Source: Prorocentrum cordatum
Lineage: Eukaryota
Assembly (NCBI GenBank): GCA_963575745.1
Contig: CAUYUJ010000084.1
Coordinates: forward strand, 1-64,000
Length of the DNA stretch: 64,000 nt
Reading direction: 5' to 3'
A program made the position numbers and the translations under genes. Below the pieces are notes generated by a model. It was not told where the DNA came from, searched no databases, and saw only the letters and a list, made by a program, of their open reading frames with translations. Position 1 is the first letter of the stretch. Each line of letters begins with the position of its first letter. Shown piece after piece: positions 3,973 to 8,257 of this stretch.

Positions 3973-6900
3973 CTCATCCTCGTCCTCCTCCTCCTCCTCC
4001 TCCTCCTCCTCCTCCGCGGACTTCTTCGCCGACGTAGGTGCGATGTCCCACCGACTGCCCACGGCGTTGCTCGACCTGTTCAAGGTCAAGCTCAGCGACG
4101 CGCAGATGGTGGCCAAACTTCTGTCATGGATGATGGCTGCAGTTGGCTCGTTATCGGACGAACTCAAGGACCTAGTCCCCGTCCTGTGCCGCGTGCCTGC
4201 TCCTCGTGACCCTGTGCAGATCGTCACGAACAGTCACGAGATCGCTAGAGATGGGGCCCGCTGGATTTGCACGAGGTGCACGGCCAGGGCCGCCCCTGAG
4301 GCAGCGGTCGCGAGGCTTCAGCGCTCCTTCTGTGAGCCAGCCGCGCTTCAGCGCCTCCTGGCCCGCGCCAGGCAGAGGCTCCCCTCCTCTTCGTCGAGCG
4401 CCTCCCTCCCTTCCTCGTCCTCGGAGGCGATCGCCATCGCCCTCCGGGCCGCCGACCGTGACCGTGCCTTGGGACCCGAGGCTGGCCATCCCACTGGGTG
4501 GGGCGAGGCTGCCAAACCCTGGACTCCCGAGGCGTCGCCCCCGTGGGGCCTGGGGAGGCCGCCGAGGGGGTCCCGTCCCTGCCAGCAGCGAGGTTGGGGC
4601 GTCCGCGGACGAGGCGGTCCCCGCGAGGCCCGCCGACGCCTCCTCCTCCTCCCTCCTCCTCCTCCTCCTCCTCCTCCTCCTCCTCCTCCTCCTCCTCCTC
4701 CTCCTCCTCCTCCTCCTCCTCCTCCTCCCCTTGGAAGTAGGACTTTAGGTGCCAGCGGTACTTTGTCTAGTCTGCCTAGCGCCCGTCAGCCCCCTCAGGG
4801 GCCCACTGTGTCTAGTGCTACCCCTGAGGCTTGCCATGAGCTTGTGCGTGGCCACCACCTCGTCACTACGGGCCCTTGTGCTTACTGTCTCGACTGTGGC
4901 GGGTCTGCGTCCACCAGGTAATCGCCAGTGTTGATGGCCTCTTGCAATGGTCCCGTCCTTTGGGAGACTAGCCGTCAGCGATGCACGGCCTTGAAGAACC
5001 TCAAGGCAGGGTGTCACCCGCGAACGGGTATTCCCCTAAGCGGTGACACACCCCGCGGCTAGGGTAGCCGTTATTCGAAAGAGCATGTTCTATCGCTGTT
5101 GGCGGAAAACCGGGGGGGGGGGGTCACTACCGGTTCGAACCCCTTCCCCCCCCCTCCTGAAAACCGGGGGGGTCACTACCGGTCCGAACCCCTCCCCCCC
5201 CCCACCCAGTCCATCATGAAAGGGGGGGGGGGTCACTACCGGTTCGAACCCCCCCCCTCCCTCGAAAACGGGGGGGGGTCACTACCGGTTCGAACCCCCC
5301 CCCTCGAAAACCGAGGGGGTGCGGACAGTGGTGGGGACGGTGGTGGTGGGGACAGTGGTGAGGGGACAGCGGGACAGTGGTGGGCTCAGTGGGACAGGTG
5401 GGGACGGTAGTGGTGGGGACAGTGGTGAGGACAATGGTGGGAACAGTGGGGACAGTGGGACAGTGGTGGGGACGGTGGTGGTGGGGACAGTGGTGTGGGG
5501 ACAGTGGGAATGTGGTGGAAACAGTGGGACAGTGGAGGGTACAGTGGTGGTGGGGACAGTGGTGAAGGCGGTGGCGAGGACGGCGGTGGGACAATGGGAC
5601 AGAGGTACAGTGGGGACAGTGGTGGGGACAGTGGGGACAGTGGTGGGAACAGTGGGACAGCTCAGTGGGACAGCGGAGGAGTCAGTGGGACAGTGGGGAC
5701 AGTGGGGATAGTCGGGCAGTGGTTGGGGCCGTGGAGAAAGTGGGGAGAGTGGAACCGTGGTGGGAACAGTGGTGGGGACAGTGGGGACAGTGCGACAGTG
5801 GTGGGGGCACTGGTGGGGACAGTAGGGACGGTGGTGGAACCAGTGGGGACAGTGGTGGTGAGGACAGTGGTGCTGGGAACAACAGTGGGGGATGTGGTGC
5901 GGACGGTGGTAGGGACCGGGAGTCGTTTGCTGGCGGTGAGTGGGGGAGGGTGGGGAGGGGTTCGAACCGGTAGTGACCCCCCCTCCGGTTTTCGAGGGGG
6001 GGGGGGGTTCGAACCGGTAGTGACCCCCCCGGTTTTCGAGGGGGGAGGGGGGGGGAGGGTTAGGGGAGGGGGGGGTTTTGCTGGGGGAGGGGGGGGTGGG
6101 GAGGGAGGGTTCCAGCAGGGGGGGGATTTTCGGAGGGGGGGGGGGGGAACCCCGGGCTCCCGAGGAAAAGGGGGGCAATTTTCCACAGTAAAGCGGAAGC
6201 GGCGGTGGATCACGCTCTCTCCGTTATTTGAATGTCATGGCTCCTTAGTTAGTTTTGGCTGGTTGGCGAGACCATCAGACCTGCGTGTCCTCCTCCTCCT
6301 CCTCCTCCTCCTCCTCCTCCTCCTCCTCCCACCTGTGGCAGTGGTGGGCGGAGATCGGCCCATCATAGGATGATCAAGTCGATCACGTTTGTCCGCGAGC
6401 TGAGGCTGATGGTCGCCTCCATCTTGTGCTCCCTCTCCTCGCTCTTGTGGGCGTTCGTTCTCCTGACCTTCGTCGTGTACCTCTTCTCGATTTTCCTGAT
6501 GCAGAGCCTGGAGGTATACGCAAACTCTATCGGGAGGAATCCTGGCGGTCAATTGATGCAGATGTTCGGCACACTCTTGGACTCCATGTACACCCTCTTC
6601 TGTGCAATCTCAGGAGGCAGGGACTGGTATGATATAATTAAGCCGTTTGACGAGATCTGGAGGGGCTATCGGGTCATCTTTGTCGTCTACGTGATCTTTG
6701 TATTTTTTGGGGTGCTGAACATATTCTGGAGGTTTGCGCCATTCCGCCGACCCCCAGAAGCAAGAACGAGAGGTGCTATGAGGCGGGGGAGGGGAACATG
6801 TGGAGAAGGAGGGGCATGATACCGAGGATGCAAGGGCCAGCATTGGCCAGCCGTTGGGTTGCCACGGGGCCGCGCTGGGCGACGCCTGGGTCTCTGGTGG

Positions 6901-8257
6901 GACGCTTTGGGGTCTCGTTGAGGCTCTCTTCTGCTCTGTTGGGGTCTGTTTGGGACCTTCCGAAGACTTCGGGGTGACTCTAGGTGCGGATGCGAGAGTC
7001 TTGGAGTCGTCTGGGTACGTCGAGAGGCAGTCTTGGAGCGGTCTCTGGGCAAGATTGGAGCAGTCTCTGAGACCAGCTTGGGACATCTGGGGCCACCTTG
7101 GGCCAGCATGGCGGCTATCTCGGAGCCTCCTGGCCTGTCGGGGGGCCTCTCAAGGACTCGCAGACCCTCTCGGAGGCCTCGGAAGCCCATCGCGGGGCCA
7201 CCTTGATGCTAAGTATGGGAACGACGGAAAGCATGCAACTTCACATCGAACTTTGAGACGGATTTGGCCTCGCGGTGACCGTCTTAAGGCCTCTTTAGAG
7301 GGGGGCTCTCGAGGCCAGGCAAGGCGCCAGCGCGAGGCCGTGGTCTGTCTTGGGCCAACTTGGTCGGTCTGGGAACCACTTGGGAGTCATTTCGAGGATC
7401 TCAAGGGCCTGGCCAGATCGGCTTGTCCAACTTGAGGCTAGTTTTCACCATCCTGAGTATGCCTGTTAGCCCCACTTCCTCCAGCCGCACCTGCTTGGCT
7501 TGCTTCTGTGCGCCCTGGCCCCAACCCGCTTGGTCCCCCAGGGTGGGCACTCTTGCGGGCAGCGTCAGCGTCAGCGTCAATGGCCTGGCCCGCAATTTTG
7601 GAGGCTCCGGGAGGCTTGATGGACTCCCGAGGTTCCTCCACCCACCCGCCCTTGAAAAACGAGGCGTTGGATTTCCTGGGCGGAGAGACTTGGGGAGGGG
7701 AGGCAGCCCGTTCAGCTCTCTGCGCTTTCTTACCCGCAGCCAGCTGCAGTTGGCGGACTGACTGCAATCTTTGTGGAGAGCGCCAAGCACATTGCCGAGA
7801 TCGATCGTGACATCGTCATTCAGGACCAAATCACGCGGGATAAATCCACGATGAACGAGGTCAGGCGTATTTTCAACACTGCCGACAACGATGGCAGTGG
7901 AAAGCTACGCCGGGATGAGCTCGAGGCGGTGCTGAGGGATGACAAAACGATGAAACACCTGAGGGTGTTGGAGCTGGACATCAAAGAGGTGGAAGGGCTC
8001 TTTCAGCTGCTGGACATTGACGACCACAACGAGGTCGTCATCGACGAGTTCGTCGTCCAGCTCATGAGGCTCAAGGGTGGAGCAAAGGGACTCGACCTAC
8101 AGACGGTTCTCTATGAGAATAAGCGCATTTTCCTCCGGCTCTCGGCAATGATGAGGTTCATGGAGAAACACATGGGGATGCTGGAGACGAGGCTCGACAT
8201 ACAGTCGACCGAAGAGGCCACCATGAAAGAATTCCTGCTGGACGAGGAGGATCCGAG
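3100..8257 (+). CDS. Single-domain voltage-gated cation channel (Ion_trans-type) with two EF-hands, paralogue 1. Exons ~3100-3239, 3431-3557, 3655-3923, 6369-6722, 7757-~8257. 5' and 3' ends uncertain.
   Basis: Joined translation gives S1 (MFSVGLVLLNTVYMGVQ), S2 (LDIIFVVLFVLELAARL), S3 (WNAFDSLLVITSLLD), S4 ([18 protein letters not shown]), S5, pore (AISGGRDW), S6 ([15 protein letters not shown]), and EF loops DNDGSGKLRRDE and [12 protein letters not shown]. Colinear with paralogue 2. Confidence 0.9.
3431..3557 (+). CDS. Channel 1 exon (pre-S1/S1)
   Basis: [36 protein letters not shown] matches paralogue 2 [36 protein letters not shown]. The 5' boundary is less certain. Confidence 0.8.
3655..3923 (+). 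CDS. Channel 1 exon (S2-S4)
   Basis: CCAG|GCG acceptor and AG|GATT (GA) donor. Encodes ASVSL...FRAVRAAR. Confidence 0.9.
4016..5062 (+). mobile_element. Probable 3' fragment of a non-LTR retrotransposon (RNase H C-terminal helix plus Cys/His modules) inside a channel-1 intron
   Basis: ADFFADVGA resembles the N-x-x-AD-x-x-A end of RNase H. It is followed by H...WICTRC...C and GHHL...YCLDCG...C...LKAGCHPRTG, with an internal stop at 4919-4921 and a CCT expansion. Family assignment is inference. Confidence 0.5.
5105..6040. mobile_element. Foldback/MITE-like element with tandem subterminal inverted repeats around a GGGGACAGT(GGT) array
   Basis: GGGGTCACTACCGGTTCGAACCCC x4 (~5120-5300) and its reverse complement x2 (~5957-6030). 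Internal 9-12-bp array at 5320-5910. Confidence 0.7.
6369..6722 (+). CDS. Channel 1 exon (S4 end, S5, pore, S6)
   Basis: TAG|GATG acceptor. [15 protein letters not shown]...SGGRDW...FGVLNI is nearly identical to 55521-55874. Confidence 0.92.
6723..7756 (+). other. Non-canonical AT...GG intron (channel 1)
   Basis: Removal is required to join AAC AT|A CTG ACT (N-I-L-T). Ends are ATTC...TGGCGG. Stem 6743-6751/7749-7757. Confidence 0.75.
7757..8257 (+). CDS. Channel 1 exon (S6 end, EF-hands, C-terminal coiled coil)
   Basis: [11 protein letters not shown]...DNDGSGKL...[13 protein letters not shown]...LKGGAKGLDL...KEFLLDEED. Homologous to five exons of paralogue 2. Confidence 0.9.

Follow-up and report, generated by a model that had tools for sequence, protein, structure and literature searches.

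Introns with non-canonical ends and a common leader-plus-helix plan in two paralogous channel genes of Prorocentrum cordatum

Introns that carry hairpins and lack GT-AG ends have so far been documented in the parasitic dinoflagellate Amoebophrya and in euglenids, and the route of their removal is treated as an open question (PMC7789003, PMC11282704). No description of AT..GG or leader-plus-hairpin introns in free-living dinoflagellates was found in the literature searched. Here, we analyzed a eukaryotic 64-kilobase (kb) window from Prorocentrum cordatum (contig CAUYUJ010000084.1, positions 1 to 64,000; guanine-cytosine (GC) fraction ~0.6), which contains two paralogous voltage-gated cation channel genes on the plus strand, located by blastn and tblastn (paralogue 1, ~3444-8400; paralogue 2, ~46500-60664). 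An earlier note on this DNA had pointed to a non-canonical intron of 1034 nucleotides (nt) in the S6 region of paralogue 1 (6723..7756, plus strand). It is likely that this is a real intron, precisely removed from a functional channel gene, and that it belongs to a small family outside the GH-AG rule (GH being a GT, GC or GA donor), with three members in the window that are marked by a shared plan and not by their terminal dinucleotides. The other two, both on the plus strand of paralogue 2, are its S6 counterpart (55875..58239) and a 107-nt intron (60497..60603). We find a common anatomy that is conserved across a gene duplication with saturated silent sites and, to judge from transcript-derived proteins, the introns are removed precisely. 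This three-member set extends the earlier observation by the third intron and by a defined geometry of leader and helix.

We compared these introns to the non-canonical introns and introner elements of Amoebophrya strains A25 and A120 (Farhat et al. 2021, PMC7789003). Both sets occur in a dinoflagellate lineage, have boundaries other than GT-AG, form repeated families, and are mixed with canonical introns in the same genes. Numerous related copies dispersed through the genome typify the Amoebophrya elements; our 64-kb window has three, all within one gene pair. The Amoebophrya introns contain inverted repeats of 8-20 nt, whose hairpin brings the exons together, and our introns have helices of 9, 18, and 13 base pairs (bp). 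Direct repeats of 3-5 nt lie over the Amoebophrya boundaries, whereas two of our introns share a single A with the flanking exon and the third shares none. The Amoebophrya introns were found to have no consistent end signature, whereas all three introns here have AT..GG ends, a conserved leader of 21-22 nt in front of the 5' arm, and a 3' arm ending exactly at the cut. The 5' arm lies 21-22 nt inside the intron and is not terminal. The Amoebophrya non-canonical introns are described as mostly strain-specific, 98.6% of conserved positions being canonical, whereas here one non-canonical intron has been kept across a duplication with a synonymous divergence (dS) >1. Finally, the genome studied here has long introns and a GC content of ~60%, whereas the Amoebophrya genomes are compact (PMC7789003).

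Anatomy and removal of the S6 introns

On the 5' side of the paralogue-1 S6 intron, the exon ..CTG AAC AT stops at 6722 and the intron opens with ATTCTGGAGG (ATTCTGG..). On the 3' side, the intron closes with ...GTTGGCGG at 7756 and the exon restarts with A CTG ACT. The S6 codons are split by 1034 nt without GT/GC/GA...AG ends; the ends read AT..GG, or TT..GA if the intron is taken as 6724-7757. A 21-nt leader (ATTC..TTGCGCC..ATT, 6723..6743) lies between the 5' junction and the helix and aligns with both 22-nt leaders of the paralogue-2 introns. The helix is formed by the 5' arm TCCGCCGAC (6743..6751) and the 3' arm GTTGGCGGA (7749..7757), which ends at the 3' junction. The arms make 9 pairs with one G-U, the ninth of which takes A7757, the first exon base, or the last intron base if the junction slides by one. 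The earlier note had quoted the exon ends, the intron ends, and both arms, all of which are present, and its 9-bp pairing with one G-U holds on inspection. The counterpart that it had reported at the same S6 codon of paralogue 2 is likewise found, with the expected 2365 nt, and the two interiors are unrelated as it had said (no blastn match between the two S6 introns at E<=1e-5). The blastn alignment between the paralogues stops just inside the intron (6366-6726 versus 55518-55878, 80.1% of 361) and restarts at its end (7751-7910 versus 58234-58393, 82.6%).

The interiors also drew side observations. In the paralogue-1 intron, 6760-7720 weakly resembles a degenerate repeat family that fills ~29-41 kb (139 tblastx matches and 4 blastn matches at ~72-80% against 29000-41000), and this interior seems to be built of dispersed repeat material. 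A segment inside the paralogue-2 S6 intron (56781-56994) recurs upstream at 45128-45283 (88% over 156 nt) and partly at 54248-54300 in another paralogue-2 intron, as a short dispersed repeat.

Removal was judged from homologous proteins. P0002 is a protein of 317 amino acids (aa) from a public contig of 1523 nt, and the exons matching it stretch over ~6.6 kb of the window; it must therefore derive from spliced RNA. Seven paralogue-2 exons joined at the inferred junctions equal P0002 in 317/317 residues, the next codon being TAG, and two of the six junctions are non-canonical (the S6 site and 60496|60604). The spliced model of paralogue 1 (3444-3557, 3655-3923, 6369-6722, 7757 onward) aligns with P0002 over 305 residues with 0 gaps. 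All ten homologues that span S6 (P0001-P0007 and P0009-P0011; P0008 stops short of S6) read N-(I/V)-(L/V)-T-(A/G) without insertion, so that the join AAC ATA CTG ACT (N-I-L-T), which the earlier note had expected in complementary DNA (cDNA), is borne out at the protein level. This join permits only two cuts. A cut behind AT gives each of the three introns AT..GG ends; a cut one base further on, behind ATA, gives TT..GA, TT..GC, and TC..GA. The channels form a large family, to which 5284 library proteins belong at E<=0.001. In the open frame 6253-6816, the homologue matches end at residue 158-160 for all but five of the 150 best of these 5284, which is 1-3 residues beyond the junction Ile codon as read by eye. 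Homologue searches including the full library returned no genomic read-through open reading frames (ORFs) from relatives, and a metagenome scan with P0002 gave a sole match (L001), an unrelated EF-hand locus of 33% identity. The relic spliced-leader motif was searched for with 0 matches. Seventeen sequencing runs contain 0.22-0.29 of the sampled words of 3600-8400, where the exon share is ~0.27; we did not use this as evidence.

We then asked what an ordinary splice could achieve, and enumerated all GH donors against all AG acceptors within ~60-110 nt of the three sites. The homologue sequence is produced by 0/588 pairs at the paralogue-1 site, 0/387 at the paralogue-2 S6 site, and 0/200 at 60497-60603 (judged against P0002). 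It is extremely unlikely, then, that 6723-7756 is spliced by the usual GT/GC/GA-AG rule, be it with a micro-exon or in nested, two-step fashion, even though its ends enclose an attractive donor (GAG|GTTTGC, 6732) and a CAG acceptor rich in pyrimidines (ending at 7739). As stated in the earlier note, none of the AGs that end at 7739, 7743, and 7749 is in phase with the GT at 6732; this GT shares its frame only with those ending at 7663, 7687, 7702, and 7780. In a nested scheme, the last step must still cut after AT/ATA and before A or CTG, neither of which is GH or AG, and the paralogue-2 introns are without matching in-phase inner sites. At the protein level a micro-exon is neither needed nor allowed, P0002 agreeing in 317/317 residues with the exons joined at the matching paralogue-2 junction.

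Another way to explain the inserts is that they stay unspliced: the two genes would be dead, insertion-bearing copies, and the messenger RNAs (mRNAs) would be transcribed from other copies, clean or retroposed, in a genome with much duplication. Multi-copy genes are common in dinoflagellates (PMC10666404), and the evidence for removal is at the protein level. However, the paralogues differ by dS 1.13 and a nonsynonymous divergence (dN) of 0.09, with dN/dS 0.08 over 209 aligned codons, even though the inserts are old enough for their interiors to have become unalignable. Both channel genes are strongly constrained, with silent sites saturated, which supports the argument of the earlier note against a recent disabling insertion. 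In addition, P0002 equals the paralogue-2 exons themselves, a retrocopy would itself come from mRNA spliced at these very joins, and the insert ends are conserved and still pair. We therefore consider dead copies improbable.

A leader and helix common to three introns

The third non-canonical intron turned up while we were mapping the introns of paralogue 2. It lies between an Ile and a Leu codon (..SMREI|LMDEE..), has AT..GG ends, and is missing from paralogue 1, which reads through ..KEFLLDEE... Its helix of 13 bp is perfect, with the 5' arm at 60518..60530 and the 3' arm at 60592..60604 on the plus strand, the last pair taking the junction base. In the S6 intron of paralogue 2, which also has AT..GG ends, an 18-bp helix with four G-U pairs is formed by arms at 55897..55914 and 58222..58239 (plus strand), the latter reaching the last base of the intron.

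Aligning the three introns reveals one plan. The exon in front of each ends in A(C/G)AT. The leaders measure 21, 22, and 22 nt, start with AT(T/C)C, and contain TTGCG(C/G)C. A CCGCC-like 5' arm starts at intron position 22-23 in 3/3, the 3' arm (..TGGCGG) stops at the last intron base in all three, and the following exon begins with (A/C)(C/T)T. The helices differ in length: 9 bp with one G-U, 18 bp with four, and 13 bp with none. Against the standard dinoflagellate pattern, which has G at position +1 and AG|G at the 3' end, 3/3 start with AT (or TT/TC if slid) and end in GG (or GA/GC), the next exon bases being A, C, and A. Such introns make up 3/11 of those mapped in the two channel genes.

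Each of the three 5' junctions falls within a motif ATAT(T/C)C (6721-6726, 55873-55878, and 60495-60500). The motif is offset by 2 nt from the join and resembles the U12 5' signal, which reads A/G-TATCC.. from intron position +1. An intron of the minor (U12-type) spliceosome is nevertheless highly unlikely. The first base of the motif is placed 2 nt too far upstream for the join that P0002 requires; an in-frame cut before the motif would give N-G-L-T and R-E-G-L-M, whereas P0002 reads N-I-L-T and R-E-I-L-M. Ending the intron at a nearby AC leads, by reading, to a stop or a frameshift, and by eye no common branch-site-like motif is present near the three 3' ends. Minor-spliceosome small nuclear RNAs are moreover reported missing in two Amoebophrya strains, and the complex is stated to be missing in other Alveolata (PMC7789003).

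We quantified how alike the ends are. The two paralogue-2 introns share an identical stretch over their last 12 nt, and only 1/3000 random segments scores as well as their 5' or their 3' modules. The 5' end of the paralogue-1 intron is matched or exceeded by 75/3000 random segments in comparison with the paralogue-2 S6 intron and by 22/3000 in comparison with the 107-nt intron; for the 3' end the corresponding counts are 30/3000 and 184/3000. The helices were evaluated by pairing the first 60 nt with the 3' end, using 5000 dinucleotide shuffles of the 5' region and 5000 random 60-nt windows. In the order paralogue-1 S6, paralogue-2 S6, and 107-nt intron, the observed helix was matched by 58, 0, and 0 shuffles and by 53, 5, and 4 random windows. 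The paralogue-1 stem gains its weight because it sits in the same place (position 22-23) as the much stronger stems of its two relatives. All 18 pairs of the paralogue-2 S6 helix are present in the minimum-energy fold of the whole 2365-nt intron, and all 13 pairs of the short intron are found in both its minimum-energy and its centroid fold. Helix positions 1-8, held in register, pair in 3/3 introns. At position 7 both sides have changed (A-T, T-G, and C-G), and positions 2 and 6 show one-sided changes to wobble pairs. A pairing between leader and exon was dropped as a shared element, as it appears only for paralogue 2 in a two-strand fold.

Scans of the window for further copies of the family found none. 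The 12-mer of the 3' end has 21 matches with up to 2 mismatches, against 9.9 expected, and the exact ones lie only in the two paralogue-2 introns. A leader 10-mer has 2 matches, both in introns already known, and nhmmer profiles found nothing new in the window below E = 0.48. Apart from the three introns, the pairs returned by a stem scan (ATATYC...GGCGG) are cross-pairs, GC-rich simple-repeat matches, or chance-level matches, for example at 34807. A degenerate leader-plus-arm pattern had 0 matches in viral contigs. Rfam returned no match at gathering score in the window, and none with E<=1 within 6650-7850. Self-splicing group I and group II introns were rejected, there being no Rfam match and the smallest member measuring 107 nt.

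Support for a family of precisely removed introns is limited by junctions seen at the protein level, by a weak paralogue-1 helix, and by a sample of three, and several results weigh against it. The removal is documented by transcript-derived proteins, which agree with a cut after AT as well as with one after ATA. The paralogue-1 helix, with just 9 bp the weakest of the three, is on its own only ~1% unusual; it is not part of the minimum-energy fold, and its pair probabilities are 0.035-0.038. Its score coincides with the cut-off of the stem scan, which 23 pairs reached. The overall folding energy of the 107-nt intron is ordinary (z = -1.11, with 24/200 shuffles folding as well). The covariation rests on very few independent events, because there are only three members and two of them are related by gene duplication.

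Selection, history, and mode of excision

The ends and the interiors of the S6 introns have fared differently since the duplication. Interiors of the paralogues are unalignable, and the ends of the GA-AG intron that both genes share are at chance identity (10/40 and 15/40, in stretches that start or stop a few bases inside the intron). Because these have decayed to chance while the S6 leader, arms, and 3' end have stayed alike, the retained parts are best read as being under selection. The claim of the earlier note that the ends are under purifying selection is supported in this respect: the S6 ends are alike at 75/3000 and 30/3000 against unalignable interiors, and the helix still pairs.

That note had also placed the origin of the intron before the duplication. 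The common codon makes this the simplest reading, and the gene most likely already had the S6 intron when it was duplicated. This is not proven: the third copy occupies a comparable ..ATA|CT.. site of paralogue 2, so that site-specific parallel insertion is possible. The 107-nt intron is most likely a later copy in paralogue 2 from the same element lineage. Its exon context is ..AGATA|CTCA.., compared with ..ACATA|CTGA.. at S6, and its ends are nearest to those of the paralogue-2 S6 intron. Closest ends and a look-alike exon site thus suggest later copying, via reverse splicing or via an element that leaves no target-site duplication.

The same intron class might have had another history, in which a mobile site-specific element, introner-like or reverse-splicing, entered each paralogue independently after the duplication and also inserted at 60497. 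All three sites fit A(C/G)AT(A) | (C/T)T(G/C)A, the 107-nt copy is not in paralogue 1, and the near-identity of its ends to the ends of the paralogue-2 S6 intron implies that it was copied. In dinoflagellates, introns made by transposons are documented at scale (10.1101/2020.10.14.339549, PMC10666404), and introner elements have been counted in P. cordatum itself (PMC10666404). We nevertheless regard independent insertion as unlikely. There is no target-site duplication at the three sites, at most one shared base (A) flanking the intron, and no other copy in the window. Inheritance is the simplest explanation for an insert at exactly the same codon and in the same phase of the two paralogues, and the paralogue-1 ends are far more diverged, as expected after a dS of ~1.1. 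Tested as transposon-made introners of the Micromonas, Aureococcus, or Polarella type, our introns show no target-site duplication and an inverted repeat that is terminal on the 3' side only.

The introner-like elements of Symbiodinium and Polarella (10.1101/2020.10.14.339549) resemble our introns in having an inverted repeat that ends at the 3' splice site and in showing evidence of copying to a new site within a gene; their GA/GC donors and AG|G acceptors match the other 8 introns of the two channel genes. They use GH...AG, however, and take the 5' site from a target-site duplication of 3-8 nt, whereas the three introns lack a G at +1, an AG, and any such duplication.

How might such introns be excised? 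We propose that the variable interior, which measures from 107 nt to 2.4 kb, would be looped out by the helix, whose base would set the 3' cut. The 5' cut would be set at a fixed distance of 21-22 nt upstream of the helix, at the conserved AU|AUYC. Helix and leader together may then form the recognition signal, and the cutting may be done not by a machine of its own but by a spliceosome that accepts odd ends, which is what has been proposed for Amoebophrya and Fritillaria. The introns of Fritillaria borealis derived from miniature inverted-repeat transposable elements (MITEs), as summarised in PMC11282704, likewise have odd terminal dinucleotides and are efficiently removed by a tolerant host spliceosome. 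They belong to an animal lineage, however, and the passage on them in that summary describes no leader-plus-hairpin geometry.

The nonconventional introns of euglenids (PMC11282704) offer a different model. As in our set, their junctions are non-canonical, there is no polypyrimidine/AG rule, and the ends pair with conserved structure near them. They range from tens to thousands of nt, lie beside conventional introns, and have been seen to be gained at new sites. Excision by a non-spliceosomal pathway, as suspected for euglenids, would have an endonuclease and a ligase read the hairpin while the intron leaves as a full-length circle, later than the conventional introns. The ends of our introns, with no G at +1 and no AG, carry no spliceosomal signal, and what is conserved is structure plus a leader of fixed length, for which euglenids provide a precedent (PMC11282704). 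Yet euglenid pairing usually joins CAG (+4..+6) to CTG (-8..-6), whereas here it runs from +22/23 onward with the last 8-18 bases, the 5' arm lying well inside the intron. Of our junctions, only those on the 5' side (U|A) follow the euglenid pyrimidine|purine rule; those on the 3' side read G|A or G|C. Euglenids are a different lineage, and their repeats resembling target-site duplications are not present here (PMC11282704). By eye, the junctions are unlike bulge-helix-bulge or IRE1 sites. The enzyme is not known even for euglenids. Such a pathway seems to us rather unlikely, about as much so as independent insertion, and we tentatively favor the tolerant spliceosome. Group I sites (exon U, intron-final G), translational bypass, A-to-I editing creating a GT, and nested splicing were rejected in the same way as the bulge-helix-bulge and IRE1 sites.

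A more far-reaching idea, which we put forward tentatively and hold to be rather doubtful, is that large-genome free-living dinoflagellates possess a second, dedicated intron definition, in which a leader of fixed length and a closing hairpin would set both cuts without GH or AG. Such introns would be kept by selection over long periods, would be able to copy themselves to ..AUA|CU.. sites (by reverse splicing or as an element without target-site duplication), and may be numerous and missed by GH-AG pipelines. Mapping and gene-prediction tools for P. cordatum were adapted for GC and GA donors and non-canonical dinoflagellate splice sites (PMC10666404), and introns like those described here are for that reason probably not annotated. 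Gene models that allow only GT/GC/GA-AG would break or truncate genes with such introns, which here account for 3/11. The set is small and clean, and its geometry is defined: the leader is conserved, the offset is fixed, and the helix extends to the cut. The S6 member has been kept across an old duplication in a strongly constrained gene, and the 107-nt member is short enough for minigene work. These introns make the question of what marks the cut sites directly testable.

Ordinary introns, host genes, and surroundings

Both host genes contain a single Ion_trans domain (PF00520) followed by an EF-hand pair (PF13405, PF13499). In paralogue 1, Pfam scores are 7.8e-08 for Ion_trans and 3e-07 for EF-hand_6, and EF-hand_7 also matched. 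This architecture corresponds to that of the EukCat single-domain protist channels, whose clades are named in 10.1101/2020.04.29.068528. The spliced model of paralogue 1 is an open product of 504 aa, which aligns with P0005 and P0006 from residue 19. A putative first coding exon (3444..3557, plus strand) covers the S1 region, its start ATG at 3444 being inferred. The next exon (3655..3923, plus strand) encodes S2-S4, as found by tblastn of P0005, P0006, and P0007. The exon in front of the S6 intron (6369..6722, plus strand) encodes the S4-S5 linker, S5, the pore, and the first part of S6, matches Ion_trans, and ends with ..GVLN + AT; its homologue in paralogue 2 is 55521..55874 (plus strand). 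The exon behind the intron (7757..8350, plus strand) holds the remainder of S6 (LTAIFVESA..) and the EF-hand region with its EF-hand_6/EF-hand_7 matches, 8350 being a provisional 3' limit.

Eight ordinary introns were mapped in the two genes: two GT-AG, three GC-AG, and three GA-AG, with G after the AG in 7/8. Where short repeats blurred the cut, we chose the GH-AG reading, for example across the 5-nt repeat AGGAT at 3924-6368. In paralogue 1, these are a GC-AG intron of 97 nt with a 14-nt tandem repeat (3558-3654, plus strand), through which paralogue 2 reads straight (..MGIQSSVSL..), and a GA-AG|G intron (3924-6368, plus strand). The latter shares its position with the GA-AG intron 54076-55520 of paralogue 2, and its junction ..RAAR|MIKS.. 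is also seen in P0008. Further introns of paralogue 2 are 46607-46785 (GT-AG), 46903-54001 (GA-AG), 58387-58549 (GC-AG), 58680-59155 (GT-AG), and 59278-60418 (GC-AG). The intron content of the paralogues differs sharply: five mapped paralogue-2 introns are missing from paralogue 1, one (3558-3654) is found only in paralogue 1, and only the positions of the GA-AG and the S6 intron are common to both. GT/GC/GA donors with AG|G are the pattern described for dinoflagellates (10.1101/2020.10.14.339549, PMC11453091), and P. cordatum is reported to have 59.7% GC and a mean intron length of 4.7 kb (PMC10666404).

Two of the ordinary paralogue-2 introns are flanked by direct repeats. One lies between exact 16-nt copies of TGGAAGGCTACGCGCA (58381-58396 and 58544-58559), and the other between 13-nt copies with one mismatch (58677-58689 and 59153-59165). 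Both are missing from paralogue 1, and their splice sites fall inside the repeats, which suggests that the introns were gained recently, through duplication or insertion. For dinoflagellates, repeats at intron boundaries are mentioned in PMC7789003.

Pfam searches over 150 further ORFs detected no other recognisable gene in the window, and for this reason no further introns could be mapped in it. Three long open frames (626, 619, and 460 aa) at 12560-18393 on the plus strand have no Pfam match and may be chance in GC-rich DNA or an unrecognised gene. Arrays of ~90-bp tandem repeats occupy 1-2405 (for example 10.5 copies at 896-1858 and 5.4 copies at 1895-2377). A 73-bp repeat (3.7 copies, 9602-9871) precedes a degenerate array of the hexamer GCTGAG that extends over 1.6 kb with ~290 copies (9870-11476). 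At 42000-44000 and 62000-64000, GC falls to 0.47 and very long trinucleotide runs are found, which read as poly-L, poly-T, poly-Y, poly-S, or poly-V across the six frames.

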